In this document: positions 4,136 to 56,546 of the stretch, piece by piece
Layout of the letters: every line of letters begins with the position of its first letter
Numbering within the stretch: position 1 is the stretch's first letter
Assembly: GCA_041396725.1 (NCBI GenBank)
Contig: JAWKYA010000004.1
Location: 20,019-84,018, forward strand
From: Alphaproteobacteria bacterium
GTDB lineage: Bacteria > Pseudomonadota > Alphaproteobacteria > JAWKYA01
Length of the DNA: 64,000 nt
Reading direction: 5' to 3'
Program-made: the position numbers and the translations under genes
Notes under the pieces: model-generated
Told to the model about the DNA's origin: nothing
Databases searched by the model: none
Seen by the model: only the letters and a program-made list of their open reading frames with translations

Positions 4136-4246
4136 TAGATCATATTAGCTTCAAGAGATTGAATATTTCGCGCTGAGGGTTGTTTTATCATAACTTCTCT
4201 TGTGGTATGGCTTTGTCGTTAGCATATCGCTCTTGGAGAACAATAA

Positions 4247-4933: not shown

Positions 4934-4951
4934 AAAAAGAAAGAGGTATTG

Positions 4952-5540: not shown

Positions 5541-5544
5541 ACTA

Positions 5545-6504: not shown

Positions 6505-6653
6505 TTAAGGCTCCGGGAGGTTTTCTGGGGCTGGATGCCGCATCGGCTAGAGAAATGGGTAACAAGGGGCTTTGTAATCGTGTTCTCTCTTGCAACAAGG
6601 TGTTAGCTCTAGGCAATCTATAGCTCTTACCATATAGGATGCCTACATAACCC

Positions 6654-8261: not shown

Positions 8262-8265
8262 GTAG

Positions 8266-11099: not shown

Positions 11100-11160
11100 G
11101 ATTTTGTGTGGTGCTGATTAATAAAAATATTTTAAATGCATCAAAAACTGAAACATTATC

Positions 11161-15314: not shown

Positions 15315-15316
15315 AA

Positions 15317-15829: not shown

Positions 15830-15845
15830 CAGCGTAATTCCTATT

Positions 15846-15875
15846 AAGGGGAGATGGATATGCCCATCTCCCCTT
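15846..15875 (-). other. Perfect 12-bp stem-loop just 3' of the TRAP binding-protein gene
   Basis: AAGGGGAGATGG-ATATGC-CCATCTCCCCTT; no U-tract follows on the transcribed (-) strand. Confidence 0.7.
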
Positions 15876-15886
15876 CTTATAAGGTG

Positions 15887-16867: not shown

Positions 16868-16884
16868 TTAATTCTCCCTTTCGA

Positions 16885-18288: not shown

Positions 18289-18499
18289 GATTCCTCCTAG
18301 TTATTTTTATCGTCCTAATCGATCAGGCTGTAACTAATAGTATTTAAACAGATGATTATGTGGTTTATGCAAATGGGTATACCGAATCTTGAGGTGGAAA
18401 CGACATTTATATCTGCTCAGTAAATCAATAAAAGTTACAGCTTGACGCTGTGATGTGCTGGCCTGAAATGGCATGAGTAGAGAGTTCTCCCCCGACCGA

Positions 18500-18536
18500 T
18501 ATGCATGCATTGTCATGCATAATTGCCTGCATTATG
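18500..18536. promoter_or_regulatory. Candidate operator(s) in the uxaC/manD divergent intergenic region
   Basis: TATGCATG-N6-CATGCATA (18500-18521), overlapped by CATAAT-N7-ATTATG (18518-18536). Confidence 0.45.
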
Positions 18537-18612
18537 ACTACCTCGGTTTGGTGATCAAGTGGTAATGTGGTCAGGTTATTATTTCGCAGATGCAAAACAA
18601 GATAGGTATTTT

Positions 18613-19821
18613 ATGAAAATCAAAGATGCCCGCGTTATCGTAACTTGCCCCGGACGCAATTTCGTTACGCTCAAAATCTTAACGGATGAGGGGATTTATG
18701 GACTTGGGGATGCAACTCTAAACGGTCGCGAACTTTCAGTTGCTTCTTATCTAACGGATCACGTGATTCCTTGTCTTATTGGTCGAGATGCGCGTCGTAT
18801 AGAAGATATTTGGCAGTATTTATACCGAGGTGCCTATTGGCGGCGCGGACCTATAACAATGTCTGCTATAGCGGCGGTCGATACGGCACTGTGGGATATC
18901 AAAGCAAAGGCGGCAAATATGCCGCTTTATCAATTGCTTGGAGGATGTAGTCGTGAAGGTGTCATGGTTTACGGTCATGCTAATGGGCGCGATATCGAGG
19001 AAACAGTCGATCGGGTATCCGAGTATCTAGGCCTAGGGTATAAGGCTATTCGCGCTCAGTGTGGTATCCCTGGTTTAGAATCTACTTACGGCGTTAGTAA
19101 GGATAAGATGTTTTATGAACCAGCAGATGCGGATCTCCCAACAGAGAATCTCTGGTCAACTGAGAAATACCTCGATCATACACCTAAGTTATTCGAGAAG
19201 CTAAGAAGTAAGTTCGGTTTTGATCCCCATTTGCTTCATGATGTTCATCACCGTTTAACACCAATCGAGGCTGCGCGATTAGGGAAATCTTTTGAGCCTT
19301 ATCGACTATTCTGGATGGAAGATGCAACACCTGCAGAAAATCAGGAAGCCTTTCGATTAATTAGGCAACATACGACTACACCTATTGCTGTCGGCGAAGT
19401 ATTCAATACAATCTGGGACTGCAAAACTCTTATCCAGGAGCAGTTAATTGACTACATTCGTACAACAGTTGTGCACGCTGGTGGGATAACACATCTTCGT
19501 CGTATTGCAGATCTAGCCGCACTCTATCAGGTTCGCACAGGTAGCCATGGCGCAACGGACCTGTCGCCTATCTGTATGGGGGCAGCACTTCACTTCGATC
19601 TTTGGGTGCCAAACTTTGGTATACAGGAATACATGCGTCATACATCTGAAACAGATGAAGTTTTTCCCCATGCTTATAGCTTCAAGGATGGATATCTTTA
19701 TCCAGGAGAAGTTCCAGGGCATGGTGTTGATGTAGACGAAAAACTTGCATCTCGTTTTCCATACAAACGTGCTTACTTGCCGGTGAATCGTCTGCAAGAT
19801 GGGACTATGTGGCATTGGTAA
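18613..19821 (+). CDS. manD: D-mannonate dehydratase, enolase superfamily (ManD/RspA)
   Basis: [57 protein letters not shown], ending [16 protein letters not shown] 18613 preferred over the ORF-track start at 18559. Confidence 0.95.
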
Positions 19822-19849
19822 AGAGGTAAAGGCAGAGGAGAGGATCGCA

Positions 19850-21352
19850 ATGGAGATTTTAAAGATTCATCCTGCAGATAATATCTTCATTGCTTTAAAG
19901 GAATTACCAATAGGAACACCTTTGGAAGAGGGCGTTTTTACAAAAGAACCTATCCGCCAAGGTCATAAAGTTGCTGGTCAGAGAATACCAAAAGGATCCA
20001 TAGTCCTAAAGTTTGCTCAACCAATCGGCATCGCGAGCCGAGATATCGCGGCAGGTGAGCACGTCCACCTTCATAATCTTTCTTATATACCAAGCTCAAG
20101 TAATCATAGTTATGGCAGTGCATCTCGAGAGGTGCCGCATACTAAACTGGCAAACTTTCAAGGAATTATTCGTCCAAATGGGCAGATAGCTACTCGAAAT
20201 TATATTGGTATTCTGACGTCGGTGAATTGTTCAGCAACTGTAGCACGCCATATCGCCGACCAATTTCGCGGTTCTATCCTTGAGCAATGGCCAAATGTAG
20301 ATGGGGTTGTCGCCTTGACCCATAAAACGGGCTGCGGCATGGCTTCTGAAGGAGAAGCCATGAATATTCTAAGACGAACTATTGGTGGGTATGCGCGTCA
20401 TCCAAATTTCTTTGGCATACTGATTGTTGGGCTTGGTTGCGAGGCGAATCAGGTAGATCGTCTACTGGATGCAGAAGATTTATCACCCTCTGAGAATCTT
20501 TTCGATCTTATCATTCAGGAAGAGGGAGGGTCCTCGGCCACTGTTCGTGGTGGTGTCAGTAAAATTAAGGCGATGTTGGATAAAGCAAATAAGATTGAAC
20601 GCCAATCTGTTTCGGTTAGCCATTTAAAACTTGGGCTGCAATGTGGGGGTTCGGATGGGTTTTCTGCTCTTACCGCTAACCCAGCATTGGGTGTCGCATC
20701 GGATATTTTAGTTCAACATGGAGGTACGGCAGTTCTAAGTGAAACGCCAGAAATCTACGGCGCAGAGCATATACTATTAAGCCGCGCTGTTAGCCGAGAT
20801 ATCGCTGATAAGCTTCTTGAGCGGCTATCATGGTGGCAAGCTTATACGTCACGTACGGGCGAAACTCTTGATAATAATCCCTCACCGGGCAATAAAGAAG
20901 GTGGCTTGACGACTATTTTGGAGAAGTCTCTCGGTGCCGTTGCTAAAGGAGGAACATCACCTCTCGTTGATGTTGTTCAATTCGCCGAAACCCTAAAAAC
21001 CTCAGGATTTGTTTTTATGGATACACCAGGCTATGATCCTGTCTCTGTTACGGGGCAGGTTGCAGGTGGATGCAATATCGTCTGTTTTACTACAGGTCGG
21101 GGCTCCTGTTTTGGTTGCAAGCCAGTACCGAGCCTTAAACTTGCAACGAATACACCGATGTATCGGCGTATGATAGAAGATATGGATATTAACTGTGGTG
21201 AAATTATCGACGGAACTGCGACGGTAGAGGAGATGGGTCGAAAAATCTTCGATCTTATCGTTGCTACTGCTTCTGGAAAAAAGACCGCAAGTGAGCGCTT
21301 AGGTTATGGAGAAGATGAATTTGTTCCATGGGTAATCGGCGCAACCGTGTAG
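19850..21352 (+). CDS. uxaA: UxaA/GarD-family sugar-acid dehydratase (SAF + dehydratase domains)
   Basis: IHPADN, GHKVA, GEHVHLHN, TSVNCSATVA, LQCGGSDGFS..TANPALG, NPSPGNKEGGLTTILEKSLG. ATG 19850 follows GAGGAGAGGA. Confidence 0.85.
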   Translation: MEILKIHPADNIFIALKELPIGTPLEEGVFTKEPIRQGHKVAGQRIPKGSIVLKFAQPIGIASRDIAAGEHVHLHNLSYIPSSSNHSYGSASREVPHTKLANFQGIIRPNGQIATRNYIGILTSVNCSATVARHIADQFRGSILEQWPNVDGVVALTHKTGCGMASEGEAMNILRRTIGGYARHPNFFGILIVGLGCEANQVDRLLDAEDLSPSENLFDLIIQEEGGSSATVRGGVSKIKAMLDKANKIERQSVSVSHLKLGLQCGGSDGFSALTANPALGVASDILVQHGGTAVLSETPEIYGAEHILLSRAVSRDIADKLLERLSWWQAYTSRTGETLDNNPSPGNKEGGLTTILEKSLGAVAKGGTSPLVDVVQFAETLKTSGFVFMDTPGYDPVSVTGQVAGGCNIVCFTTGRGSCFGCKPVPSLKLATNTPMYRRMIEDMDINCGEIIDGTATVEEMGRKIFDLIVATASGKKTASERLGYGEDEFVPWVIGATV

Positions 21353-24511: not shown

Positions 24512-25614
24512 CTAACTTGTTGGGGATTGCTTTGCCGGCCGGCTACCAGCATTATTGCCGCGAACCGTCACCGTGGAGCCATCGCGAATGATTTGTGTTC
24601 CTCGGATGACTACGACCTCACCCGGGGTAATTCCTTTAATAATCTCAGCTTTACCTAGGGTTCTTGAGCCCAAAATAACTTCTCGACGCTCAACCTTGTT
24701 GTTATTGACAACAAAAACATACTGTTTGGTGCCCTGAGGAACGAGTGCTTCCTCAGAAATAAGAGTGGCATTTTCGCGAGAAGCAATGGCTGCTTCAACC
24801 TTTAAAAACATACCAGGACGAATAACTCCATCAGGGTTAGGGAGGGTCGCTTTTAGGGCAATCGAACGGGTAACCGGATCGACGCGTGTATCGATGGCGG
24901 TTACCTGACCTTGGAAAGTGCGATCTAGAAATGCATCGGATCTTGCAATAATGGGCATCCCAATCTTGATGGCTGCAAGGGTTGTTTCAGGTAGTAGAAA
25001 GTCAACTTGCATGCTTGAGAGGTCGTCAAGAGTTGCGATAAGTGTTCCTGGTTGAACGACGGCCCCAGGTGAAACCTTACGGATACCCATGGTTCCTGAA
25101 AAAGGAGCATAGATTTTCAGATCTGCAAGGCGTGCCTTTGCACCGGCAACAGCTGCCCGTGCTGTATCTAGTTGAGCCTTTAACTCATCCACACGTGCTG
25201 TTGCAATTGCATTTGCTGCAGATAAAGAGGTCGCACGCTGTAAGGAAAGCTCAGCATTCCGTCGCACGGCCTCGGCGCTCGACAGGCTAGCCTCTGCTTC
25301 ATCACTACGTAGAGTAACAAGGAGTGTGCCAGCTGGCACACGCTGACCATCTGCAAAATTGATGCTTTCAACGATCCCTGTAACTTTTGCCGTTATTGCA
25401 ATAGCTTCGTTTGATCGTGCCGTACCGACAGCTTCTGCAATATCCCGAATAACCCAGTTTCTGCCTTAGTAACTTCGACAGGAGCAGGAGGTGCTTCACG
25501 TGCTGCGGAAATGCTGATATGGGGTAGGCCAAAGTAATGTCTATATCCCCAGTATGCTACGCCGAGGGCAACGATACTAAATAACCCACCCATTACCCAG
25601 CGACTTCGCCACAT
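24512..25614 (-). CDS. RND periplasmic adaptor (membrane fusion protein); one frameshift near 25455
   Basis: N-terminal anchor MWRSRWVMGG.. joins ..AVGTARSNEA.. across an apparently missing G. C-terminal part has IYAPFSG, IDTRVDPVTR, RPGMFL. Confidence 0.85.
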
Positions 25615-26612: not shown

Positions 26613-27608
26613 TCACAACCAACCCATTCGTCGGAAATATAAGAAGGGAACGATAGCAGAGAGAACCATCAAGCCAAGTGCTGTGGGATAGCCAAAAAGC
26701 CATGAAAGCTCAGGCATGTAATGAAAATTCATCCCATATATACTAGCCACTAAAGTTGGGGGTAGAAAGACAACAGCAGCAACAGAGAAAATCTTGATAA
26801 TCCGATTTTGCTCAATGCTAATCATACCGAGTGTAGCATCCAATAAAAAATTAACCTTATGAGACTCAAAAGTCGAATGCTCATTCAGAGAGATAATATC
26901 ACTGCGAAGGCTTTTTAGCCGTGTTCGCAGTTCTTTTAGTCCATTGCGAGTATTTGTTTCGAATTCTGGCGTAATAAAACGGATTAACCGTGTCAGACTT
27001 AAAAGACTCTCACGAATGTTGGATGTAAGGTCCTCATTCCGCCCTAAATTTTTTAATATTGCCTGTAAATCGCGCCGTTCACCTACTCGTCGACGCGCTG
27101 TTGACGGACGTGTATCAAAAATTTGTTGAGATAGGGTATCTAAGTCAACGCCGATACGCTCGAGAATATCGGCAAGTCTATCAACAAAGGCTTCGAGTAA
27201 TCCAATCAGAATATCGCGCGCATTTAAGTGCGCCGATGGTTGGCGCGTTAAACGGATTGCAAAAGATGAAATAGGGCGTGGATCACTATAACGTAAAGTA
27301 ATTAATCCTCCCGGACATAGAATGAACGCTAAAGATTCTGCACTTGGGTTAGGCCCATCAGCATTGGCAAGAACCGTAGCTGTCATTCGGAATATATGTC
27401 CCTCAGTATAAAAACGACTTGAAGACTCAATTTCTTGCATAGCCTCACGGGTGGGAAGGGAGAGTTCGAGCGCTCTTTCAAGAGTTTCTTTCTCGGCATC
27501 TGTTGGGTTATGCAGATCGATCCATAAGGCAGGCAAGGGTAAATGCATTCCAGGAAGAAGGGTAAGGCACTCGATAGAATCGCCGCGGCGGAGGTATACA
27601 TTAATCAT
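26613..27608 (-). CDS. corA: CorA family Mg2+/Co2+ transporter
   Basis: WIDL..P, two C-terminal TM helices with the GMN signature (YGMNF..MPEL). Confidence 0.95.
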   Translation of the reverse strand: MINVYLRRGDSIECLTLLPGMHLPLPALWIDLHNPTDAEKETLERALELSLPTREAMQEIESSSRFYTEGHIFRMTATVLANADGPNPSAESLAFILCPGGLITLRYSDPRPISSFAIRLTRQPSAHLNARDILIGLLEAFVDRLADILERIGVDLDTLSQQIFDTRPSTARRRVGERRDLQAILKNLGRNEDLTSNIRESLLSLTRLIRFITPEFETNTRNGLKELRTRLKSLRSDIISLNEHSTFESHKVNFLLDATLGMISIEQNRIIKIFSVAAVVFLPPTLVASIYGMNFHYMPELSWLFGYPTALGLMVLSAIVPFLYFRRMGWL

Positions 27609-27799
27609 AGCTGCCTCATTAGAGGAACGTGCTCGAGGGAACTGATTCTCGCAACGATATTTGTCACTTTATAGCTGCCACGTGAAGGTACACATCGCAA
27701 TTCCTTTAAACTTTAGAATAAAGAGTAGAAAACAGGCTTTTCATTCGCTTAGTTACCCGCTAAAACCTTGGCACTTATGATTATACAAGGGGGTAAGGG

Positions 27800-28974
27800 G
27801 TGATGAAAAAGGTCTATAGAGTGCTTGGGGCGCTCGTAGGAATAGTTCTAGCCACACCAATTGCAGCAGCTGATTCGGTTAAGATTGGGTTCATTACGAC
27901 CTTATCAGGGCCTGCAGGCTATCTTGGTGAAGATGCTAGAGATGGGTTCCAGTTGGCTATAGATCTTGAAGGGGGAAGGCTTGGAAACATACCTGTAGAG
28001 CTCTTGGTTGAGGATGATCAGCTTAAGCCTGCCACAGGTAAGCAACTAGCCGATAAGTTTGTAAAATCAGATAAAGTGAAGATTGTTTCGGGTATTATCT
28101 TTTCTAATGTTGCAATAGCGGCGGTGCCGGGGATTTTAGAATCGGGTGCATTTTTTATCTCACCAAATGCAGCCCCATCTGAATTTGCGGGTCAGGGCTG
28201 TCATAAGAATTATTTTGTTGTTTCATGGCAGAACGATAATCTGCATGAAAGTGCTGGTAAGGCAGCTAGCGATCTTGGGTACAAGAAGATGGCTATCTTG
28301 GCGCCAAATTATCAGGCAGGCAAGGATGCCTTAGCTGGATTCCGCCGCTATTATAAAGGTGAAATCGTTGCAGAAATATTCACAAAGTTGGATCAAACGG
28401 ATTTCGCACCTGAGATTGCGCAGATCCGTGCAGCGAAGCCAGATGCTGTATTTCACTTTCATCCAGGTGGACTCGGAATTGCTTTCACCAAGCAATATAT
28501 TCAAGCAGGCCTGATAAAAGATATTCCTTTGGTAGCGCCTATGCCATCTATGGAAAATCGCGTTATGACAGCTATTGGTGATGCGGCGATCGGAATTCAA
28601 AGTACCAGCCATTGGAACCAAGATTTTACTAACGAGGCGAATAAGAAATTCATGGCTGAGTTTCAAAAAAAATATAAACGTGTTCCAACAGAATATGCGC
28701 AACAAGGTTATGATGCGGCGCTCCTGATCGCGAGTGCTCTTAAAGCTGTTGGCGGAGATATAAACCAGGAAGATAAATTCCGGATGCATTGCGGAAAGCT
28801 AACTTTCAGTCGCCACGGGGATCCTTCAAGTTTGCATCTAATCAGCACCCAATTCAGGATTGGTATGCTCGGGTTGTAGAGAGGGGCGCGGATGGTAAGT
28901 TGACGATGAAAACTTTGCGAAAGGTTTTTGAAAATCATGTCGATGCTTACGCAGCGGAATGCAAGATGAAATAA
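27800..28974 (+). CDS. Branched-chain-amino-acid-family ABC substrate-binding protein; frameshift near 28782
   Basis: KIGFITTLSGP, LLVEDDQLKP, SGIIFSNV, SWQND; continues in another frame as (D)ALRKANFQSPRGSFKF..NQHPIQDWY to 28974. Confidence 0.9.
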
Positions 28975-28992
28975 AATGCAAGATGAAATAAA
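28959..28992 (+). repeat. Perfect tandem duplication of a 17-nt unit spanning the SBP stop codon
   Basis: ATGCAAGATGAAATAAA at 28959-28975 and again at 28976-28992. Confidence 0.9.
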
Positions 28993-29030
28993 AGGAAGGG
29001 CGCCCGTTACCGAGGGTGTGTCGGACGTCT

Positions 29031-29945
29031 ATGAGTTTACTTTTTGAGCAAGTTCTAAACGGTCTACAGTTTGGAATTATGCTCTTTTTGCTATCGGCAG
29101 GGCTAACCCTTACCTTTGGGATCATGGGCCTGATTAATCTCGCTCACGGATCGCTTTATATGATCGGCGCTTATGTCGCTGCTAGTATAGTTGCGTATTC
29201 AGGCTCATTTTTCTTGGCTGGCATTGTGGCTTTGCTAGCAACAGGAATTCTTGGGATTATTATCGAAATTCTTATTATGCGCCGATTGTATCTGCGTCAC
29301 CATCTCGATCAGGTACTCGCTACTTTTGGGTTAATTCTTTTTGCGAATGAAGCGATGGCTTGGATATATGGGCGTCAACCTTTGTTTATGGAGATGCCAG
29401 AAACTCTTTCGGGGGCAATTGAAATTCTTCCGTCGCTTTCGTATCCATTCTATCGTCTTGTTATCATCGCTGTGGGACTTGTTATTGCAGTTTCATTGCA
29501 TCTACTTATACAAAAGACACGGCTCGGTATGCAGATTCGTGCTGGGGCAACCCATCGGGAAATTATTGCAGCCTTAGGGGTAAACATTAAGCTTCTTTAT
29601 ACCGCTGTGTTTGGTTTAGGTGCGCTGCTAGCAGGGCTTGCAGGAGTAATGGCAGGGCCACTTCTTTCGGTACAAACCGGGATGGGTGAGAACATCCTCA
29701 TCCAGTCTTTTGTTGTTGTTATTGTTGGTGGTCTTGGATCTTTGCGGGGCGCTTTTGCAGGGGCCCTCTTAGTCGGTTTAACGGATACTTTGGCTAGAGC
29801 ATATCTACCAGGCCTATTAAAGCGCGTGATGGATTCAGCGACAGCCAGTAGTTTGGGTGTAGGATTGGCTTCTATAGCAATCTATATTTTGATGGCGGCC
29901 ATCCTCATATGGCGGCCACGCGGTCTGTTTCCTACGCATGCGTAA
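29031..29945 (+). CDS. LivH-type ABC permease
   Basis: QVLNGLQFG, AGLTLTFGIMGLINLAHGSLYMIGAY, VIVGGLGS, WRPRGLF. Confidence 0.95.
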   Translation: MSLLFEQVLNGLQFGIMLFLLSAGLTLTFGIMGLINLAHGSLYMIGAYVAASIVAYSGSFFLAGIVALLATGILGIIIEILIMRRLYLRHHLDQVLATFGLILFANEAMAWIYGRQPLFMEMPETLSGAIEILPSLSYPFYRLVIIAVGLVIAVSLHLLIQKTRLGMQIRAGATHREIIAALGVNIKLLYTAVFGLGALLAGLAGVMAGPLLSVQTGMGENILIQSFVVVIVGGLGSLRGAFAGALLVGLTDTLARAYLPGLLKRVMDSATASSLGVGLASIAIYILMAAILIWRPRGLFPTHA

Positions 29946-30903
29946 CCGCCATCTTATTGCAACGGTTGGCTTGTTTGGGCTACTTGCCGTTTTGCCTGGA
30001 TTTTCTGTTCTCTTAGATCAACCTTATTTTTTGATCGTTGGTACGAAAATTCTTATTTATGGAATTGCCGCTATAAGCCTCGACCTTCTTTTAGGGTATG
30101 GAGGGATGGTCAGTTTTGGGCACGCAGCTTTTCTTGGTGTCGGTGCCTACGTTGTAGGAATTTCGAGTTTCCATGCACAAAGTCTAAAAATTTATGATTT
30201 TGGCGTTGGGAGAGAAGCTTTGATTGTCTGGCCTTTGGCTATTCTTGCATCAGCGTTCTTTGCTGCTCTTATTGGAAGCTTATCACTGCGGACAAAGGGT
30301 GTGCAATTTATCATGATCACTCTTGCATTTGCTCAAATGCTTTTCTTCATGACTGTTTCTCTCGAAGTCTATGGAGGAGACGACGGCCTTGGCTTGAGTG
30401 GCCGCAACCAAATCGTTGGGCTAAGTCTCGATAACGATATGGTTTTTTATTATGTTTGTTTTTGTAGTCTTGGGAGCTTCTTCTATTTCTGTCAGAAACT
30501 TATAACTTCTCGGTTTGGGCGCATTATTCAGGGCATTCGACAAAACCCCTTGCGTATGGAAACTTTAGGATACCCCATTTATCGGTATCAACTTATCTGT
30601 TTTGTTATTGCTGGCGCAGGCGCGGGGCTTGCCGGGGTATTGGCAGCAAACCAAACAACATTTGTGAGCCCCGATCTTCTTCACTGGAGTAAATCCGGTG
30701 AAATCATGATTATGGTTATCTTAGGAGGGATGGGAACCTTGCTTGGTCCAATCTTAGGGGGTGCGGTATTGATTGGGTTTGAGGAAGGCCTTGCAAGATA
30801 TACATCCCACTGGATGATTTTCTTGGGCACACTTCTTATCGTCATGGTCTTAATGTTACGGCGCGGCCTTTATGGCCTTTTCGTGCGTGGCCATAGTGAG
30901 TAA
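29938..30903 (+). CDS. LivM-type ABC permease
   Basis: LLGYGGMVSFGHAAFLG, MITLAFAQM, GGDDG, MVILGGMGTL.GP. Confidence 0.95.
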   Translation: MRNRHLIATVGLFGLLAVLPGFSVLLDQPYFLIVGTKILIYGIAAISLDLLLGYGGMVSFGHAAFLGVGAYVVGISSFHAQSLKIYDFGVGREALIVWPLAILASAFFAALIGSLSLRTKGVQFIMITLAFAQMLFFMTVSLEVYGGDDGLGLSGRNQIVGLSLDNDMVFYYVCFCSLGSFFYFCQKLITSRFGRIIQGIRQNPLRMETLGYPIYRYQLICFVIAGAGAGLAGVLAANQTTFVSPDLLHWSKSGEIMIMVILGGMGTLLGPILGGAVLIGFEEGLARYTSHWMIFLGTLLIVMVLMLRRGLYGLFVRGHSE

Positions 30904-31651
30904 TTGCTTACCGATACTGCAAATTGAGTGTTTGAGCAAAAGCTTCGGTGCTGTTCAGGTTACCGATAATCTCTCATTAAACCTCGAGCAGGGAGAATTC
31001 CATGCTATTATCGGACCAAATGGAGCGGGCAAAACAAGTTTAATTGCGCAGATCTCTGGCACTCTCAGACCTGATTCTGGTCGTGTATTGTATAAGGGGC
31101 AATCCATAATTACTCAACCGATTTGGCAACGTCGTTTGATGGGTATTGCTCGATCATTTCAAATGACCTCTATTTTTCCTGAATTCACAGTAGAAGAAAA
31201 TATTATCGTCAGTATGCAAGCGCATAAGGGCTCTTACCTTTCCTTTTGGAAAGATAAGAAAAAAGAGAAACAGCTGAGGACTGAGGTAGCGCAAATTCTC
31301 AATGAAATTGGTTTAGCGTCGAGAGCTGAAATTCCTGCAAGTAATCTTTCTCATGGTGAGCGGCGTCAGTTGGAATTGGGAATAGCTATTGCGGAAAGAC
31401 CGTCACTTTTACTTTTGGATGAACCAATGGCAGGCATGGGGGTCGCAGAATCTTCTAATATCGTAAACCTACTGCAAAGACTTAAAGGTCAAATAACAAT
31501 TCTCTTGGTTGAGCATGATATGGATGTTGTTTTTTTCCTTGCAGATCGCATCACCGTTATGGTTTACGGCAAGATTATTGCCTCAGGTACACCTCGTGAA
31601 ATTAAGAACAATGCTGACGTTCAAGCAGCTTATCTTGGGTCAGCGGTGTAA
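30872..31651 (+). CDS. LivG-type ABC ATPase (true start may lie slightly downstream)
   Basis: Walker A GPNGAGKT, LSHGE, LLLDEP, LLVEHDM. Confidence 0.95.
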   Translation: MAFSCVAIVSNCLPILQIECLSKSFGAVQVTDNLSLNLEQGEFHAIIGPNGAGKTSLIAQISGTLRPDSGRVLYKGQSIITQPIWQRRLMGIARSFQMTSIFPEFTVEENIIVSMQAHKGSYLSFWKDKKKEKQLRTEVAQILNEIGLASRAEIPASNLSHGERRQLELGIAIAERPSLLLLDEPMAGMGVAESSNIVNLLQRLKGQITILLVEHDMDVVFFLADRITVMVYGKIIASGTPREIKNNADVQAAYLGSAV

Positions 31652-31656
31652 CAGTT

Positions 31657-32358
31657 ATGCTTTATCTTACGGCCATTGAAACTTTCTACCAACAAAGCCA
31701 AGCATTATTCGATGTTAGTTTTTCCCTAGAAAAAGGAGAGGTTGTTTCTTTGCTTGGCCGTAATGGTATGGGTAAAACAACAACCATACGTTCGATCCTA
31801 GGATTAACACCGCCACGTAATGGCCAGATCACTTTTAAAGGTCGTAAGATTCAGGGGCTTTCGAGTTTTCAAATTGCGCGACAGGGTATAGGCTTTGTTC
31901 CCGAAGGCAGGCAAATTTTTCCTCGATTAACAGTAAAAGAAAATCTTCTTGTTGTTGCAGTGCATCGGCAGAGCGCGGAGAGATCATGGAATCTTCAGCG
32001 AGTTTTCAGTCTTTTTCCAAGGCTTCAAGAGCGGAGAGATCAACCTGCATCCTCCCTATCCGGAGGTGAACAGCAAATGCTGGCTATCGGTCGTGCGCTG
32101 ATGACGAATCCTTGCTTATTGATTTTGGATGAAGCAACGGAAGGATTAGCGCCACTGATCCGGCAAGAAATCTGGGATTGTCTCTCTATGCTTAAACGGG
32201 AAGCCCTTACAATTCTTATTGTCGACAAAGATCTTGTTGCATTACAAAAACTTGTCGATCGCCATGTCATTATAGAAAAGGGCCGAACAGTTTGGCAGGG
32301 AAGCAATAAGGTATTTTCTGCTGATCTAGGCCTGGCACGGCGATATTTGGGAGTTTAA
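31657..32358 (+). CDS. LivF-type ABC ATPase
   Basis: GRNGMGKTT, VPEGRQIF, LSGGEQQMLAIGRALM, LDEATEGLAP. Confidence 0.95.
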   Translation: MLYLTAIETFYQQSQALFDVSFSLEKGEVVSLLGRNGMGKTTTIRSILGLTPPRNGQITFKGRKIQGLSSFQIARQGIGFVPEGRQIFPRLTVKENLLVVAVHRQSAERSWNLQRVFSLFPRLQERRDQPASSLSGGEQQMLAIGRALMTNPCLLILDEATEGLAPLIRQEIWDCLSMLKREALTILIVDKDLVALQKLVDRHVIIEKGRTVWQGSNKVFSADLGLARRYLGV

Positions 32359-33567
32359 ATGCAAAGAAATGTGTTTAATGGTCCTATCGATAAGCTGCCT
32401 TGTCAGTCATCAGCGTATGACTTTGGCCCCTTTATAGGGATTGGCAAAAACACGTTTCAGCAATTACGTCAGGCTCTGGCACAAACCGCTAAAGCCATGG
32501 TTGCGGCGAAAATTTCCCCAGCGTGTTTGTCAACTATGGTATGGATAATCTCTCCTAAAGCTGCTCAGGAATTGCGGGATCAGCCCCGCCGTACCGACTT
32601 AATCTTTCGTGAGGTTTTTGGCGGGAACTATCCAGCTTTAGATATACGAGAGGAAAATGGGCTAGGCGCGGTTACTCTCTCAGCGACAGCAGCAGTTTCT
32701 TCTATAGATTCTCGCTATGTTTATCGCCAATTTACGAGGTCTGAGCTTGATCGTGCCTATAGCGCACGGGCGGCTGTACCAGAGCATTTGGAAATTCTTT
32801 CTACCTGGCATGAGCGTAGTGAAGTATTTCGGAGCTCAAGGGTGGCAGAGCGGATAACACTTACTTATGGGTCGATCGAGTCACAGAAGATCGATTTGTA
32901 TTTACCAACTAATCGGCAGGCCCTCTCGCAAGATCCGTTACCTATTCATATTTTTTTCCATGGGGGTTACTGGCAAGCTCTATCCAAGGAGGAACACGGT
33001 TTTCTAGCGGATTCTTTTGTGAAAGAAGGTATAGCGTTTATCGCGGTTGATTATTCCCTATGTCCTGCCGTAACTCTAGGTGAGATTTATCGAGAAGTCC
33101 GAACAGCTCTCTTGTTGATAGCTAAGCAAGCCGCTCGCTATGGTTTGCGTACAAGGCGATGGCAAGTAGGAGGACACTCGGCTGGGGCACAGCTTGCAGC
33201 TCTATTGGCAACGGATCAAGAAGTTGGTCCGTTGATATCAAGCCTAGTCTTGCTAAGTGGAATATATGATCTGGAACCTCTGCGTTACACGAATATGAAC
33301 CGCGTTCTTGATCTCGATGAGGTAACTATAGCACGACAAAGCCCGCTTGGTTTACTTCCCGTGCACCCCCTTAATATCGTTATGACCGTGGGGGATAAAG
33401 AGAGTGGGGAATTTCATCGCCAGTCCGCAGATTTTGCTATGGCTTGGCAGAAGCTCAGTTGCAAAATAATGATAATTCCATCCCCTGGATCCGATCATTT
33501 TACGGTTTTAGAGCTTTTATCTGATCCCCAAACGCCTCTGTTTAAGGCGGCTAAATCTCTATTCTAA
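32359..33567 (+). CDS. Alpha/beta-hydrolase of arylformamidase (kynurenine formamidase-like) type with an extra ~110-aa N-terminal RidA/YjgF-like domain
   Basis: C-domain: FFHGGYWQ oxyanion motif, GHSAG nucleophile elbow, SGIYDLEPL, C-terminal DHF histidine. The N-domain ends FREVFGGNYPAL..., resembling the RidA C-terminal helix/strand. Confidence 0.75.
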   Translation: MQRNVFNGPIDKLPCQSSAYDFGPFIGIGKNTFQQLRQALAQTAKAMVAAKISPACLSTMVWIISPKAAQELRDQPRRTDLIFREVFGGNYPALDIREENGLGAVTLSATAAVSSIDSRYVYRQFTRSELDRAYSARAAVPEHLEILSTWHERSEVFRSSRVAERITLTYGSIESQKIDLYLPTNRQALSQDPLPIHIFFHGGYWQALSKEEHGFLADSFVKEGIAFIAVDYSLCPAVTLGEIYREVRTALLLIAKQAARYGLRTRRWQVGGHSAGAQLAALLATDQEVGPLISSLVLLSGIYDLEPLRYTNMNRVLDLDEVTIARQSPLGLLPVHPLNIVMTVGDKESGEFHRQSADFAMAWQKLSCKIMIIPSPGSDHFTVLELLSDPQTPLFKAAKSLF

Positions 33568-33573
33568 AACCCA

Positions 33574-33614
33574 TTTACAATACATATGAATAAGAATATA
33601 ATGAAAATTCATAT
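33574..33614 (+). promoter_or_regulatory. Sigma70-type promoter with overlapping inverted repeat (candidate operator)
   Basis: TTTACA (33574-33579), 17 nt, TATAAT (33597-33602); inverted repeat ATATGAAT (33584-33591) / ATTCATAT (33607-33614). Confidence 0.6.
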
Positions 33615-33629
33615 AATAAAGGTTCAGAA

Positions 33630-34619
33630 GTGTTTGATACTCTTGGATTTCGTTCGGCGCTTAGTCGGTTTGCTACTGGCGTCACGATTATTTCAGTTCA
33701 ACCTGACGATGGGCCACCCCTCGGCTTAACGGTTAATTCCTTTAATTCTGTATCGCTTGATCCTCCGCTCGTCCTGTGGAGTTTAAACAGGCAAGCACAA
33801 AGCCTGCCTATTTTTGGTCAAGCGGGCCATTTTGGCATCAGTGTTCTTGCCGCTGATCAAATAGATTTATCGCGACGCTTTGCATCCTCTCTTGAGAATC
33901 GGTTTGAGAATATTGCAGTTTTTACAGGCACCACAGGGGCTCCCCTTATCCAGGGGAGTATTGCCTGGTTCGACTGTAAGTCCCGTTATTACTACGAAGG
34001 TGGAGATCATTTAATATTCGTAGGTGAAGTTCTTTCTTTTGGTTTTTCGGATCAACCTGCGTTGCTTTACGAAGGTGGAAAATACAAAGTTGCAGAGCTT
34101 CATCCAGATCTCACTCTATCATCATCAATATCAGCATTAGCGGATAAGGTTGGGATAAATAGAGAGGGCGATGTTGCGTACTTTTTGGCAAAAGCTAGCA
34201 AATTAATAGGTTTAGGTTTCCATGAAGAGTTGAAGAAAAGAGGGTTTAGTTTAATTGATGGCCGTATTTTGAGCCATTTATTGCATCATCGCGAAAGTAT
34301 TGTTGGGTATATTGCGAACGCAGCCCTAGCGCCTCAGCCTACGGTCACTAAAGCCATTGATCGCCTTTGTCAGCAGAATCTTGTGCAACGCCAGTCACAT
34401 ACAAAAGATCGCCGTAAAGCGACAGTTACCCTGACGGAAAAGGGTAGGGATCTTGCTCGGTTTATTGTCGAAAAATCAATTCAGTATGAAAAAGCACAGC
34501 TCGCAGCATGCAGCGCGACTGATGTTGCAAATTTACTCTCCTCAGCCTTGGACAATATCATCAGGAAATGCGATCCGATGACCGATGATGTACCAGAGCC
34601 GATGCTGGAAACAGCTTAA
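33630..34619 (+). CDS. Flavin reductase (HpaC-like) fused to a C-terminal MarR winged-helix domain
   Basis: N: FRSALSRFATGVTII, GLTVNSFNSVSLDPPLVLWSL, GGDHLIFVGEV. C: QPTVTKAIDRL..QNLVQR...DRRKATVTLTEKG. Confidence 0.9.
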   Translation: MFDTLGFRSALSRFATGVTIISVQPDDGPPLGLTVNSFNSVSLDPPLVLWSLNRQAQSLPIFGQAGHFGISVLAADQIDLSRRFASSLENRFENIAVFTGTTGAPLIQGSIAWFDCKSRYYYEGGDHLIFVGEVLSFGFSDQPALLYEGGKYKVAELHPDLTLSSSISALADKVGINREGDVAYFLAKASKLIGLGFHEELKKRGFSLIDGRILSHLLHHRESIVGYIANAALAPQPTVTKAIDRLCQQNLVQRQSHTKDRRKATVTLTEKGRDLARFIVEKSIQYEKAQLAACSATDVANLLSSALDNIIRKCDPMTDDVPEPMLETA

Positions 34620-37270
34620 GAGGCTTTTCCAAAATTGTTGATGGAGTGTACCCTAAGTTAGGGGCGTTAGCTCTACTTCGCGCAATTGGCATATTCTTGC
34701 GACGCGCATAATCTTCAACTTGATCACGTTCAATTTTGCCAATACCGAAGTAAGTTGATGCAGGGTGACTAAAATAAAAACCACTAACAGCCGCAGTGGG
34801 GAGCATAGCGTAGCTATCTGTTAAGGTGATCCCAGCGTGGGTTTCTGCTTTAAGCAAGGTAAATAAACTCTGCTTGTGGTATGATCAGGGCACGCAGGAT
34901 AGCCAGGTGTGGCGGATGCCGCGATAAGCTTCTGTGATAAGCTCATCATTGCTGATTTTCAGTGGGGGCGTATCCCCAAAATTCCTTACGTACCCAAGTT
35001 CATGCAGTCGCTCAGCAAAAGCCTCAGCGAATGATCAGCCAATGCCTTTAGGAGGATGGCTGAGTAATCGTCGTGATTGCGCTCAATTCATCAACATACC
35101 GATCGATGCCTCCGCCTGCTGTCACGGCAAATCCACCGAGGTAATCAGTTCGAGAGGAGGAGATAGGTGCAAGAAAATTCACAAGAGAATAATTGGGGCG
35201 GACGCTATCTTGCCGGTCCATTTGCTGCCGCAGCATAGGATCCGTGCGAGCGGAGCTGACTGTGCTTCATCTTTCCAGAGAACGATGTCGTCATTATCGG
35301 CATTAGCAGGCCAGAATCCTATGACTGCGCGCGCTTGTAGCCATTTTTCAGAGATTATTTTTTTCAACATTTTTTGCGCATCTTCGTAAAGAGGGCGCGC
35401 TGCTGGACCAACAATGGGATCATCGAGGATATCAGGGAAGCGCCCAGATAATTCCCAAGCAGCGAAGAAAGGCTTCCAGTCGATCCGCTGGGCAAGCTCA
35501 GCTAGATCGTAATCAGAAAAAGATTTAAGGCCAAGAAGCTGTGGGCGAGGAGGATGGTAATCAGTCCAGTTGGTGGGTGCAGGATTATGCGCGCCGCAGC
35601 AAGCGGCAATCGTTTTTTACCCTCCCGCTGATGCGCATAGGACCTGCGCAACCGCTGATAATCTTGCCGTATTTCTTTCGGTAAAATTAGAGATGTTCCC
35701 AATGATTTAATAGATTGCCTACAGACACCGACGGCGCGACTTGCATCAGGGACATAGACAACAGGTCCAGAGTAGTTTGGCGCAATTTTAACGGCAGTAT
35801 GAACCTTTGTTGGTTGTGGCGCTGCCAATCAAAAGCGGAATCGGAGAAATTCCTGCGCTGCATTTCCTGGGCAACATAAGACATTTCCTCAAGACTTGGC
35901 GTAATCAAAACCTGATAAGCCGATGATATCGACTTTTTCAGTCTTGGCAGTTTTAAGATTTTAGCACAAGGTGTCATAACCCCAAGATCAATAACTTCAA
36001 AATTATTGCATTGCAAAACGACCCCCACGATATTTTTACCAATATCATGGACATCACCTTTGACGGTCGCCATTAAAACCTTACCTGCGGATTGAGAATT
36101 ACCACCGCTTTTTTCCGCTTCGATATAAGGCAGAAGATAAGCAACAGCCTTTTTCATAACTCGAGCACTTTTAACGACTTGCGGTAAGAACATCTTACCT
36201 GCACCAAATAGATCACCGACAACGTTCATGCCGTCCATAAGTGGCCCTTCAATGACGGCTAAGGGTCGTGGAGCAATTTGCCGTGCTTCTTCGACGTCTT
36301 TTTCGATGAAATCATCGATCCCATTAACGAGCGCATGAGTAAGGCGGTTATTAACATCCTTTTGTCGCCATGATAGATCGACTTCTATTTTTTTGGTCTC
36401 GCCAGTATATCGGCCAGCAATAGCTAATAGCCGATCAGTCGCATCGGCGCGTCTATTTAATAAAACATCCTCAACGTGCTCACGCAATTCGATGGGGATT
36501 TCTTCGTAAACAGTAATTTGCCCTGCATTAACGATACCCATATCCATGCCAGCACGAATGGCATGATAAAGGAAGCAACTATGCATGGCTTCACGGACAG
36601 GGTTGTTACCGCGAAAAGCAAAAGAAACGTTAGAGACACCCCCAGAAATGTGAACATGCGGGAGAGTTTCTTTGATACGTCGTGTCGCTTCGATGAAGGC
36701 CAACGCATAATCGGCATGCTCTTCAATACCAGTACCGACAGCAAAAATGTTGGGGTCAAAAATGATATCCTCTGGCGGGAAGTGTAATTTATCAAGCAAT
36801 AGGCGGTATGCGCGAGTACAGATATCAACTTTTCGATCGGCAGTATCTGCCTGGCCGCGCTCATCAAATGCCATGACAACAACCGCAGCCCCATAGCGGC
36901 GGACCGCCTTTGCTTGCTTTAAAAAAGTATCCTCACCTTCTTTTAGGCTGATCGAGTTAACAACGGACTTACCTTGTACACACTTAAGGCCAGCCTCAAT
37001 AACCGACCATTTTGAAGAGTCGATCATAATTGGGACCTTAGCGATATCGGGTTCGCCAGCGATTAAATTCAGGAAGCGAGTCATTGCTGCTTCTGAATCG
37101 ATCATCGCTTCATCCATGTTAACATCGATGATCTGCGCACCATTATCCACCTGTTCGCGAGCAATAGCGAGGGCAGCTTCAAAGTCGTCTGCTAAAATCA
37201 GCTTTTTAAACTTCGCTGACCCAGTAACGTTTGTGCGTTCACCAATATTAACGAAACGCCCACCGGTCAT
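34616..37270 (-). CDS. metH: B12-dependent methionine synthase, C-terminal subunit (pterin-, cobalamin-binding and reactivation domains); several frameshifts between about 34640 and 35850
   Basis: [62 protein letters not shown] (B12 His), later [13 protein letters not shown] and PNLGY. The stop is inferred as TAA 34616-34618, overlapping the convergent gene's stop. Confidence 0.9.
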
Positions 37271-38322
37271 GCAGATAACTCAAAAGGCTCAAGACCCGAA
37301 AGACGCATCGCAGGAATGTGTTTCGGAATAATACGTGGCTTTATACCAGAGGTCTTTTTGGAAAAAGCTCGGATGTGGTCCGGGGTTGTGCCACAGCAAC
37401 CTCCAACAATATTCACAAGTCCAGCCTTGGCCCATTCGCCGATATGAGTAGCCATATCTTCGGGCGTCTCGTCATACCCACCAAAGGCATTCGGGAGGCC
37501 TGCATTGGGGTAAACTGAAAGACATGTATCGGCAACGCGTGATAATTCAGCAACGAAAGGGCGCATTTGCTTTGCGCCAAGGGCGCAATTTAACCCAACA
37601 GCAAAAGGTCGAGCATGGCTAACAGAATTCCAAAAAGCTTCAGGGGTTTGGCCAGAGAGAGTTCTACCTGAAAGATCAGTGATTGTGCCCGATATCATAA
37701 TAGGAAGCTGTTTCCCTGTTTCCTCAAAAACTTCATCAATAGCAAAAAGAGCCGCCTTGGCATTAAGGGTATCGAAGATAGTTTCAACTAAAAGAATATC
37801 GACGCCGCCCGCTATTAGGCCGCGAGTTGCCTCAGCATAAGCGACACGTAACTCATCAAAGGTCACATTGCGTAAGGCAGCGTTGATAACATCGGGTGAA
37901 ATAGATGCGGTGCGGTTTGTTGGGCCAATCGCCCCAGCTACAAACCGTAGATGATCAGGGCTTTTTTCTTCAATGGCTGCCACAGCCTTTGCAGCTAGCT
38001 TTGCGCCTTCATAATTAAGCTCGTAGGCTATTGTGGACAGATCGTAATCTGCTTGTGAAATAGTGGTTGAGTTGAAGGTATTGGTTTCGATGATATCGGC
38101 TCCGGCAGTAAGGTACTCGCGATGAATATCTTCGATGATATCGGGCTGAGTTAAAGTCAGTAGATCATTATTTCCTTTAAGATCGCGAGTATGGTTTTTA
38201 AACCGCGCGCCGCGAAAATCTTCCTCGGTCAACTTGTGCCGTTGGATCATTGTCCCCATAGCGCCATCGAGGAGTAAGATCCGTTCTCTGATGGTACGGT
38301 TTAATATCTGTGTTTTATTCAT
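37267..38322 (-). CDS. metH: Methionine synthase N-terminal homocysteine-binding subunit (separate ORF)
   Basis: [47 protein letters not shown] 38322 overlaps the metF stop (TAATG); its TGA overlaps the next ATG (ATGA). Confidence 0.9.
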
Positions 38323-39185
38323 TAAGCAGCCTCTGCAGAGACAGGTTGAACGCCGAGCCGACGGCATATAGCATAGGTAAGGGCAGGGCGATTCAGGGTG
38401 TAGAAATGAAAATCTTCAACTCCTTCGCGTGCAAGTTTTTGGCATAGTTCCGTTGCGATAGATGCAGCGACCAAAGCGCGTGTCTCATGATCGTCTTCTA
38501 ATCCATGAAATAAGTCAGCCATCCAGTTCGGAACCGTAGTGCCGCAGCGGGCAGCAAACTGAACGATCTTAGCGAAGTTTGTTACGGGTAAAATACCTGG
38601 GATAATCGGAGCCGAGATACCTGCAGCCGTGCAGGTATCTCGGAATCTCAGAAAGGTATCTGCTTCGAAAAAGAACTGGGTGATGCCGCGGCGAGCTCCG
38701 TTATCGAACTTATGCTTTAAATTATCAATATCGGCAGTGATGGTGGGAGAATCAGGATGCTTCTCCGGATAAGCAGCGACGGAAATATCAAAGTTCGCAA
38801 TTTTACTAAGACCTCTCACAAGTGCCGCAGCATTGATATAGCCTTCAGGGTGGGGGGTATATTTCAACTCGCCCGCAGGCGGATCCCCGCGCAAAGCGAC
38901 GATACTGGTGATACCAGCATTCCACCATTCTTGTGCCAGATGATCGATATCGAGGCATGAGGCGCCAACACAGGTTAAATGGGCTGCAGGCGTTAGCGGG
39001 GTTTCCGATTTTATTCGGCGAACAATGCGATCGGTACGTTCGCGCGTGGAACCGCCGGCACCATAAGTGACAGAAACAAACTGTGGGCGTAAGGATTCGA
39101 GCTTGCGGATTGTCTCCCAAAGCTTAGCGGCTTCAGCCTCGCTGTGGGGTGGGAAAAACTCGAAGCTAACGCGGGGAGCGGTCAC
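38322..39185 (-). CDS. metF: 5,10-methylenetetrahydrofolate reductase
   Basis: [47 protein letters not shown]. Confidence 0.97.
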
Positions 39186-52981: not shown

Positions 52982-53080
52982 GCGATTACCCCTTTTACTC
53001 CGGCTTATTTATAGGCAGTTTAGCGACCAAGCCTTGTAACTGTCATGCGTAAGGTTCCTTTTTTGGGAGAAAATCAGTTA

Positions 53081-56481: not shown

Positions 56482-56546
56482 TTTCGATCTTAACCATGCA
56501 AGGGTGAATTAAGTATTCAAAAAGATTTTATAAGAAGGACGTATGG

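Follow-up and report, generated by a model that had tools for sequence, protein, structure and literature searches.

The 64,000-nucleotide stretch of an Alphaproteobacteria genome analyzed here (the window) carries, at positions 27800-34619, seven open reading frames (ORFs) arranged head to tail on the plus strand, which encode an ATP-binding cassette (ABC) importer, a hydrolase and a flavin reductase. With moderate confidence, we interpret this module as an operon for the uptake and hydrolysis of a compound of the kynurenine/anthranilate family, namely an ortho-amino-substituted derivative of an aromatic acid. Candidate substrates would be N-formylkynurenine, N-formylated or N-acetylated anthranilate, or a closely analogous compound. 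This interpretation fits because orthologous ABC-hydrolase units adjoin kynA in Aminobacter and Ensifer, IDO/kynU in Natronosalvus and a 3-hydroxyanthranilate dioxygenase gene in Chelatococcus. Each component of the module belongs to a known kind. Three elements are new: the fusion of a Rid domain to a formamidase, the recurrence of the transporter-hydrolase unit in company with Rid and flavin proteins, and its presence together with a C1-type reductase in a genome where neither an oxygenase nor a downstream pathway could be detected. No description of the gene set was found in the literature searched (subscription journals not covered). The initial annotation of this DNA did not recognize the set as a described pathway, which holds for the set as a whole and not for the reductase-MarR architecture, already known from C1.

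Source and organization of the module

The window is part of contig 4 of a 1.62-Mb metagenome-assembled genome of 50 contigs, rated 65% complete (G000). A congeneric genome of ~2.5 Mb, rated 100% complete (G001), was used for comparison, and negative genome results rest on it because G000 is only 65% complete. The only sequencing runs containing the stretch are labelled wastewater metagenome; a single DNA run (X1) contains it, with a contig depth of ~5. All assignments of function given below rest on homology and gene neighborhood. The features of the module are as follows.

27800-28974, plus strand: Liv/HAAT-type periplasmic binding protein with a signal peptide (Peripla_BP_6, 242 bits; frame 1 covers 27800-28879)
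29016-29945, plus strand: ABC permease 1, LivH/UrtB-like (Pfam BPD_transp_2, 119 bits)
29938-30903, plus strand: ABC permease 2, LivM/UrtC-like (Pfam BPD_transp_2, 123 bits)
30872-31651, plus strand: ABC ATPase 1, LivG/UrtD-like (Pfam ABC_tran and BCA_ABC_TP_C)
31657-32358, plus strand: ABC ATPase 2, LivF/UrtE-like (Pfam ABC_tran, 121 bits)
32359-33567, plus strand: hydrolase of 402 aa (Pfam Abhydrolase_3/BD-FAE)
32359-32718, plus strand: Rid (YjgF/RidA-family) domain of the hydrolase, lacking the catalytic arginine (structure match, hhalign)
32713-33567, plus strand: AFMID-type alpha/beta serine hydrolase domain (HGGYW, GHSAG with Ser274, His380, Glu348 as probable acid)
33574-33614, plus strand: promoter-like site and inverted repeat, candidate operator (sequence pattern)
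33630-34619, plus strand: C1-type flavin reductase of 329 aa (Flavin_Reduct, aa 11-153; MarR-like winged helix, aa ~200-275)

ORF and Pfam assignments confirm the seven co-directional ORFs first annotated at these positions, and the ORF coordinates confirm that the ATPase 2 stop codon abuts the hydrolase start with zero gap (32358/32359). The permease 2 gene overlaps the permease 1 gene by 8 nt, and the hydrolase and reductase genes are 62 nt apart. The congeneric genome carries the same seven genes in identical order, all intact, with protein identities of 87-90% for the binding protein, 56% for the hydrolase and 61% for the reductase; the module is therefore functional in the genus. Contigs from an RNA library of the same study match the window without differences at 27982-28530 and 31963-32171, a weak hint that the binding-protein and ATPase 2 genes are transcribed, since DNA may contaminate such libraries.

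The hydrolase: an AFMID-type domain fused to a Rid domain

The catalytic domain of the hydrolase is predicted to resemble kynurenine formamidase (AFMID type). The HGGYW and GHSAG motifs are present in the translation and invariant in 18 of 18 aligned homologues, as are Ser274, His380 and Glu348. An AlphaFold model of the protein (pLDDT 87, pTM 0.87) was compared with solved structures using VIA-align. Residues ~120-402 align with Pseudomonas chlororaphis "Lipase 1" (9n8r, Z 37.0), a Silicibacter putative esterase titled putative thioesterase (2pbl, Z 33.4) and Drosophila kynurenine formamidase (4e11, Z 31.2, rmsd 2.4 over 273 residues), while the next-best structures, ordinary family-IV esterases, reach Z values of at most 24.7. 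The fold is thus closer to the solved kynurenine formamidase than to generic family-IV esterases, with 9n8r and 2pbl closer still. The Drosophila enzyme (4e11/4e14/4e15) has the alpha/beta fold, HGGYW, GHSAG and the C-terminal His in common with the window protein, at 23% identity, and lacks the additional N-terminal Rid domain. The acid residue of AFMID is Asp, whereas that of the window hydrolase is probably Glu. The genomic context differs as well, tryptophan dioxygenase and kynureninase being undetected in the host genomes of the window protein.

The best NCBIfam model, HaHSL_fam "hormone-sensitive lipase" (NF058665), gives 166.4 bits over residues 129-397 and does not reach its cut-off of 320. 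About 14 of the best 120 homologues listed are ~380-413 aa long; the remainder are ~280-325 aa, many of them named arylformamidase by JGI. The arylformamidase-type hydrolase of the initial annotation is supported by its motifs and AFMID-like fold, with the correction that the protein has 402 aa rather than ~280 and carries a fused Rid domain that had gone unseen.

This extra N-terminal domain covers residues ~16-119, ~120 aa in all. The Rid domain of the window protein has no Pfam match at E ≤ 0.01. In an ESM Atlas model, residues 16-119 align to a RidA cluster with a TM score of 0.74, and a profile of 14 fused N-domains matches the free Rid proteins of related gene clusters with an hhalign probability of 98.9% (E 3.6e-17); those free proteins match Pfam Ribonuc_L-PSP (PF01042). 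The Arg of the "PAR" motif in E. coli YjgF (1qu9) is replaced by Met in the free Rid proteins and by Leu in the window domain, which therefore lacks the arginine that characterizes RidA imine deaminases. According to PMC4433059, a survey of 2015, RidA cannot hydrolyze imines without this arginine (Arg105 of E. coli TdcF/RidA), which holds the free carboxylate of the substrate, and the functions of the Rid4-Rid7 subfamilies, which lack it, are completely unknown. One idea that would fit the missing residue is that the arginine is dispensable in a Rid partner whose substrate is a CoA thioester; the hydrolytic deamination of an enamine is mentioned in PMC3534580. The idea does not transfer directly to the genus of the window because no aryl-CoA ligase was found there.

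A search with the Rid profile returned 1161 representatives at E ≤ 1e-10. Among the 150 listed, nearly every one is a free Rid protein (90-230 aa), and no fusion of an N-terminal Rid domain to a hydrolase is among them. Both families also occur as separate neighbors in several other lineages, which makes the fusion a Rosetta-stone link. It gives a testable functional context to Rid subfamilies that have no known role.

Conservation of the transporter-hydrolase unit

The five transporter genes and the hydrolase gene occur in the order of the window in at least five other lineages, with binding proteins 51-63% identical to that of the window: Chelatococcus pCO-6 (63%), the metagenome locus L024 (61%), Tistrella pTM2 (59%), the metagenome locus L089 (53%) and plasmid 1 of Paracoccus denitrificans PD1222 (51%). 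The Aminobacter binding protein is 49% identical (tblastn). Permease 1 is 55-64% identical to its orthologues in Chelatococcus, Tistrella, P. denitrificans, Aminobacter, L024 and L089, and tblastn comparisons show that the transporters of the four named genera are orthologous.

Among plasmids, 209 records contain a homologue of the hydrolase, and 13 annotated neighborhoods were examined. Liv-type ABC genes lie within the flank in 8 of these 13, a kynurenine-pathway enzyme in 4/13, a Rid gene in 5/13 (4 free, 1 fused) and a flavin reductase or PNPOx-family FMN protein in 4/13. The three weakest homologues (27.9-32.9% identity; Deinococcus, Pantoea and Rhizobium etli) have unrelated neighbors. 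On Chelatococcus pCO-6 the order is LysR, a xanthine-dehydrogenase-family subunit, a DHDPS-family protein, 3-hydroxyanthranilate 3,4-dioxygenase (3-HAO), five ABC genes, a Rid-hydrolase fusion of 376 aa and aspartate dehydrogenase; the dioxygenase, directly upstream of the ABC genes, scores 166 bits against Pfam 3-HAO. On Tistrella pTM2 a cupin and a FAA hydrolase precede the five ABC genes, which are followed by a nitrilase-family hydrolase, a flavin reductase whose gene overlaps the start of the hydrolase gene, and the hydrolase. In Aminobacter and Ensifer the hydrolase gene is divergent from a ligase-kynA-ABC operon, the ligase belonging to the benzoate-CoA-ligase family. The haloarchaeon Natronosalvus carries IDO, kynU, a ligase, the hydrolase and ABC genes. 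A flavin reductase lies ~5 kb from the hydrolase in Paenarthrobacter, and PNPOx-family FMN proteins lie near it in P. yeei and Caballeronia.

The plasmid clusters of Aminobacter, Ensifer, Chelatococcus, Tistrella and P. denitrificans thus have an orthologous transporter (binding protein 49-63% identical in the four compared, Ensifer being left out; permeases 39-64%) and a hydrolase 33-37% identical to that of the window, in the window gene order in Chelatococcus, Tistrella and P. denitrificans. They differ in having catabolic partners that the window module lacks, namely kynA, a ligase, 3-hydroxyanthranilate dioxygenase, a cupin, FAA hydrolase and nitrilase-family proteins. Among the clusters compared, a Rid fusion is found only in Chelatococcus and an in-operon flavin reductase only in Tistrella, where it has no MarR domain. 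The literature searched contained no experimental study of these five clusters. Of the three parts grouped together in the first reading of the sequence, the transporter and the hydrolase travel together in several lineages, whereas the reductase accompanies them only in some (Tistrella, Paenarthrobacter). The lack of co-conservation that this reading named as grounds for refutation is thus contradicted for transporter and hydrolase and applies only partly to the reductase.

A binding-protein homologue is present in 11 of the 80 metagenome loci with the hydrolase that were fetched, many of which span only a few kb. L024 and L089 repeat the gene order of the window (binding protein, two permeases, two ATPases, hydrolase), and L024 also encodes an ACMSD-family Amidohydro_2 protein. 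Eight of the 11 loci represent one soil lineage, with proteins 77-96% identical to each other. Its cluster encodes an SdgC/ACMR-type aryl-CoA hydroxylase-reductase (NF006101, 1127 bits, cut-off 1078), a second FAD monooxygenase, a binding protein on the opposite strand, a MarR protein, the hydrolase, a benzoate-CoA-ligase-family enzyme and an arginine-less Rid protein to which the Rid domain of the window is homologous. In this lineage, homologues of the binding protein (43-49% identical) and of the hydrolase, a MarR and a Rid protein of the window's subfamily are thus neighbors of a ligase and an SdgC-model protein, as for an abm/sdg-type aryl-CoA pathway of anthranilate or salicylate. The benzoate-CoA-family ligase of this pathway is not found above cut-off in the genus of the window (best TIGR02262 match 249 bits versus 375). 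The open frames that contain the FAD_binding_3 matches of the genus are all too short for a hydroxylase/reductase of this type, ~780 aa in length (the four strongest are 412-480 aa; the SdgC/ACMR model was not searched).

These neighborhoods bear on whether the hydrolase is instead a general carboxylesterase or lipase of the hormone-sensitive-lipase group, or an aryl-CoA thioesterase, in which case its position behind the transporter would say nothing about aromatic amides. We regard this as unlikely. HaHSL_fam as the best NCBIfam model, Lipase 1 as the best structure and the thioesterase title of 2pbl all favor it, HaHSL hydrolyzes many esters in vitro according to the abstract of its report, and a thioesterase would fit the several contexts that contain aryl-CoA ligases and an SdgC/ACMR-type hydroxylase. 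However, the adjacency of the hydrolase to this transporter is kept in at least six lineages, kynA, IDO/kynU or 3-HAO are neighbors in 4 of the 13 plasmid loci, and no benzoate-CoA-ligase-family match of the genus reaches its cut-off. Moreover, an Aminobacter member of the family (L152, 8010-8837) scores 370 bits against HaHSL_fam, above the cut-off of 320, and its gene is only ~2 kb away from kynA. What the family name records is therefore an assay and not a proven physiological role, and "hormone-sensitive lipase" may hide a kynurenine formamidase.

AFMID-like hydrolases are located within ~2-4 kb of kynA, IDO/kynU or a 3-hydroxyanthranilate dioxygenase gene in bacteria and in a haloarchaeon. 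Many prokaryotes may therefore use an alpha/beta-hydrolase formamidase, and the lipase name may mislead; kynurenine formamidase is described in PMC4243253 as not being the same in prokaryotes as in eukaryotes. The ABC-hydrolase unit also marks a transporter family for which tryptophan, kynurenine or an anthranilate derivative is a candidate ligand.

The transporter and its binding protein

The transporter has the composition of a Liv/HAAT importer according to Pfam, with a Peripla_BP_6 protein, two BPD_transp_2 permeases and two ATPases. Its proteins are far below the curated NCBIfam cut-offs for LivJ/K, LivH/M/G/F and Urt: the binding protein scores 50.8 bits against the LivJ/LivK model (cut-off 477) and 58.9 bits against UrtA (cut-off 493), permease 1 scores 195 bits against UrtB (cut-off 250), and all matches of ATPase 1 are under their cut-offs. 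It is thus predicted to be a Liv-superfamily system of a specificity other than that of LivJ/K or of the urea transporter Urt. The nearest solved sequences to the binding protein are 4evq/4evr (E 2e-56), 4ey3, 4evs and 4f06, which we take to be Rhodopseudomonas palustris binders of benzoate derivatives, presumably corresponding to RPA0668 and RPA0985. These HbaE-type aromatic-acid ABC importers belong to the same Peripla_BP_6 fold family and are the closest solved sequences, but they are distant relatives only (best E 2e-56). The proposal that the binding protein is of an aromatic-acid type is nonetheless sustained, its nearest solved relatives being aromatic-acid binders and not LivJ/K or UrtA. 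RPA0668 binds benzoate, 4-hydroxybenzoate and salicylate (PMC3223731).

The reading frame of the binding-protein gene breaks in the window, and its last ~63 codons lie in another frame, with a stop at 28972-28974. When the gene is aligned with its intact 390-aa counterpart in the congeneric genome, one base proves to be deleted from a GGG run at ~28782-28784. The X1 contigs match the window without difference up to 28783, end there and restart at 28855, leaving the break unbridged; run X3 yields no contig here, and no contig spans the break. The frameshift may reflect gene decay or a low-coverage assembly error. Pfam recognizes all five gene types of the ABC system described as complete, but in this assembly the gene for the binding protein carries a frameshift. 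Its stop codon lies within a perfect tandem duplication of 17 bp at 28958-28991, of which the congeneric genome has a single copy.

It is very unlikely, in our judgment, that the module is a decaying relic in this genome or that its transporter carries ordinary branched-chain amino acids. The frameshift and the other broken genes of the window (metH, glpD and gcvT) would agree with decay, but all seven genes are intact in the congeneric genome, and contigs from the RNA library match the binding-protein gene, a weak argument. The assembly has a depth of ~5x and is contradicted by X1 contigs through many indels in the metH region, so the frameshifts of the window may be assembly errors. Transport of branched-chain amino acids would suit a member of the Liv/Urt superfamily, but not the scores of 51 versus 477 bits for LivJ/K and 59 versus 493 bits for UrtA.

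The flavin reductase and its upstream spacer

The last protein of the module matches Pfam PF01613 with 127 bits and MarR/MarR_2 with 33-35 bits, which bears out the flavin reductase-MarR fusion of the initial annotation. Its best solved match is the reductase C1 of p-hydroxyphenylacetate 3-hydroxylase from Acinetobacter baumannii (5zc2/5zyr, E 1.4e-42), in which a flavin reductase is likewise joined to a MarR/NadR-like effector domain; the fusion therefore has this known C1-type architecture. In PMC11618861, the C-terminal domain of C1 is described as binding the aromatic substrate of the partner oxygenase, which relieves the inhibition of NADH use and permits flavin reduction. The window protein differs from C1 in three respects. 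No C2-type oxygenase was found in its genus. The model NF045919, over residues 2-308, gives 189 bits for the window protein and 216 bits for that of G001, below the cut-off of 340. Finally, the window gene follows a conserved palindrome that suggests DNA binding, and the passages on C1 in PMC11618861 describe none.

The spacer between the hydrolase and reductase genes contains a promoter-like site (TTTACA-17-TATAAT, score 11/12), which is overlapped by a perfect 8-nt inverted repeat, ATATGAAT-N15-ATTCATAT. Both halves of the repeat are kept in the otherwise diverged spacer of the congeneric genome, a comparison of two sequences only. Within the window the palindrome pattern occurs at 33586-33612 and at one further, chance-level site, and the region upstream of the binding-protein gene (27600-27810) contains no inverted repeat. 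The repeat is a candidate operator for the MarR-like domain.

Fused reductase-MarR proteins were found in 9 of 400 other genomes of the class, counting matches that extend to query residue 279 or beyond. Eight loci were fetched, and the neighborhoods of five were scanned with Pfam (L136, L139 and L140 were left out). One (L141) contains an HsaA/C2-like oxygenase (326 bits) ~4.4 kb from the reductase. In another (L134), a protein of the acyl-CoA dehydrogenase (ACAD) fold lies ~2 kb away; it is of unclear type, acyl-CoA dehydrogenase models being best and SfnB/DszC weak. Two of the five carry a DAO-family oxidase, in one case with PaaX and a binding protein and in the other with aminotransferases, and one consists of housekeeping genes. 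Because the five scanned neighborhoods differ, the reductase-MarR fusion is a mobile accessory with changing partners. A recent fusion with an abm-type MarR was considered and rejected: at E 1e-5, tblastn finds nothing in common between the MarR domain and the free MarR genes of the soil lineage, and the fused architecture is widespread.

Oxygenases and aromatic pathways in the genus

The oxygenase reported as absent from the window was not found there or in either genome among the families searched (StyA-type and halogenase-type were not searched). A genome-wide search for orphan flavin-dependent oxygenases, which had been suggested as a check, likewise returned none in G000 or G001 among the HpaB, luciferase-like and HsaA/C2 families: HpaB and luciferase-like proteins are missing from both (0/2 each), and the scanned ACAD-fold proteins of the two genomes fit acyl-CoA dehydrogenase or desulfinase models best, not HsaA/C2/DszC. 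The HsaA/C2-like protein beside the fused reductase in L141 was recognized by this test and served as its positive control; for the isovaleryl-CoA dehydrogenase orthologue, the judgment came solely from Pfam and from its place among leucine-catabolism genes.

The reductase could be half of an ordinary two-component monooxygenase whose partner is encoded elsewhere or belongs to an unrecognized family, so that the module imports, deacylates and hydroxylates an aromatic compound. The match to C1 of p-hydroxyphenylacetate hydroxylase speaks for this, as do the clear oxygenase ~4.4 kb from the fused homologue in one of five neighborhoods (L141) and the ACAD-fold protein ~2 kb from that of L134. The negative searches for HpaB, luciferase-like and C2-type partners speak against it, in a genome reported 100% complete, and we consider it a rather unlikely explanation. 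A C1-type reductase with no detectable oxygenase raises the question of the role of such ligand-gated reductases on their own.

Enzymes of the neighboring aromatic pathways were also looked for in G000 and G001. Neither contains tryptophan 2,3-dioxygenase (PF03301, 0/2) or kynureninase (TIGR01814, 0/2), while IDO (PF01231) and KynB were not searched. Neither contains 3-HAO, in a search validated on the Chelatococcus plasmid. N-formylkynurenine would therefore need an outside source, and no fate for kynurenine would be obvious. That the module supplies 3-hydroxyanthranilate for NAD synthesis was rejected because no 3-HAO was found, and a gentisate route for want of any gentisate 1,2-dioxygenase match in the two genomes. 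A need for anthranilate salvage in tryptophan synthesis was rejected as well, TrpE being present in G001 (563 bits, cut-off 518). Quinolinate synthase NadA was not found in either genome, in a search whose control was positive in 12 of 14 reference genomes. With no NadA and no kynurenine route found, the genus may depend on salvage for NAD; this supply is not tied to the window module.

The Rut pyrimidine pathway combines the same three protein types as the window, namely a Rid protein (RutC), an alpha/beta hydrolase (RutD) and a flavin reductase (RutF). RutD acts on 3-aminoacrylate, the intermediate on which the Rid protein also acts. The window differs in the alpha/beta subfamily of its hydrolase and in its transporter type, and no RutA-type oxygenase was found. 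The pathway was rejected for the module, with RutF at 66 bits versus a cut-off of 255 and no luciferase-like RutA-type protein in either genome. Deamination of the enamine 3-aminoacrylate by the Rid protein is described in PMC8113886.

Proposed function of the module

In the uptake and hydrolysis operon that we favor, the binding protein would capture the compound for import by the permeases and ATPases (two of each), as their homologues suggest. In the cytoplasm, the serine hydrolase would remove the formyl or acyl group by means of Ser274, His380 and Glu348 and an oxyanion hole formed by HGGYW, judging from its fold, its motifs and the neighbors of its orthologues. The Rid domain might, speculatively, act on an imine or enamine form of the product or of a related intermediate, or might merely make the enzyme trimeric. 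The reductase has the architecture of a C1-type NADH:flavin reductase; its MarR-like domain probably senses an aromatic carboxylate and gates flavin reduction, and possibly binds the palindrome. The module would probably end in a released aromatic amine with formate or acetate, or feed an unrecognized acceptor.

Several observations weigh against this interpretation. The genus has no detected tryptophan 2,3-dioxygenase, kynureninase or 3-HAO, and with TrpE present tryptophan synthesis creates no need for anthranilate. In this assembly the gene for the binding protein is broken. Against its nearest NCBIfam model, which has a cut-off of 320 bits, the hydrolase reaches just 166 bits, and it is only 30-37% identical to the homologues whose contexts support the assignment; its nearest structures, 9n8r and 2pbl, and the named member of its family are esterases or lipases with broad ester activity. 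A flavin reductase occurs in none of the 80 metagenome loci, many of them short fragments, nor within the flanks read of Chelatococcus, P. denitrificans, Aminobacter and Ensifer, and fused reductase-MarR homologues in other Alphaproteobacteria have unrelated neighbors. Finally, we infer the substrates of the module from homology and neighborhood. The import and deformylation or deacylation of an aromatic amide proposed in the initial annotation is backed by the orthologue neighbors (kynA, IDO/kynU, 3-HAO) and the AFMID-like fold, while N-formylkynurenine as the natural substrate is unproven because the genus lacks a detected tryptophan dioxygenase or kynureninase.

A bolder scheme, which we think improbable, is a self-contained route made up of the Rid-formamidase fusion, its dedicated importer and the effector-gated flavin reductase, with no oxygenase required. 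The arginine-less Rid domain and the formamidase would act on the imine or enamine (or hydroxylamino or quinone-imine) form of an imported ortho-aminobenzoyl compound, and reduced flavin would act directly on the substrate. If true, this would be the first physiological role for an arginine-less Rid subfamily, and the "eukaryotic" type of kynurenine formamidase would be a regular prokaryotic enzyme with its own transporter.

Other features of the window and the genus

Methionine synthase is encoded by two genes in both G000 and G001, with the homocysteine-binding domain separate (37267-38367 in the window; L013, 11770-15743). The second metH gene, on the minus strand at 34624-37270, comprises pterin-binding, B12 and activation domains (887 aa in G001). 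Its first 476 aa are in one frame and 88% identical to the G001 protein, and beyond them the matches, at 42-53% identity, are spread across three frames. The X1 contigs differ from the window by ten small indels at 34873-35720 and by several substitutions in the metH region. This stretch is either a decayed gene or poorly assembled.

Four other genes look interrupted. The glpD gene (53045-54579) is split, with a frame change near 53431, gcvT (50096-51219) is split into two overlapping ORFs, and the genes of a PALP enzyme (5920-6504) and of an HlyD-type adaptor (24512-25339) look split or truncated. The split genes fit a low-depth assembly or a pseudogene-rich genome.

Between dus and the OpuAC gene, the congeneric genome (L022, 7856-9076) encodes a 3-sulfinopropanoyl-CoA desulfinase-type ACAD (635 bits, cut-off 600) and a TPR protein, both missing at the syntenic place of the window (~56500-58600). 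A complete-looking leucine catabolism cluster is located at 2963-12069, with isovaleryl-CoA dehydrogenase, methylcrotonyl-CoA carboxylase subunits, enoyl-CoA hydratase and HMG-CoA lyase, and is adjoined by a uronate utilization cluster with a TRAP transporter at 12568-21352.

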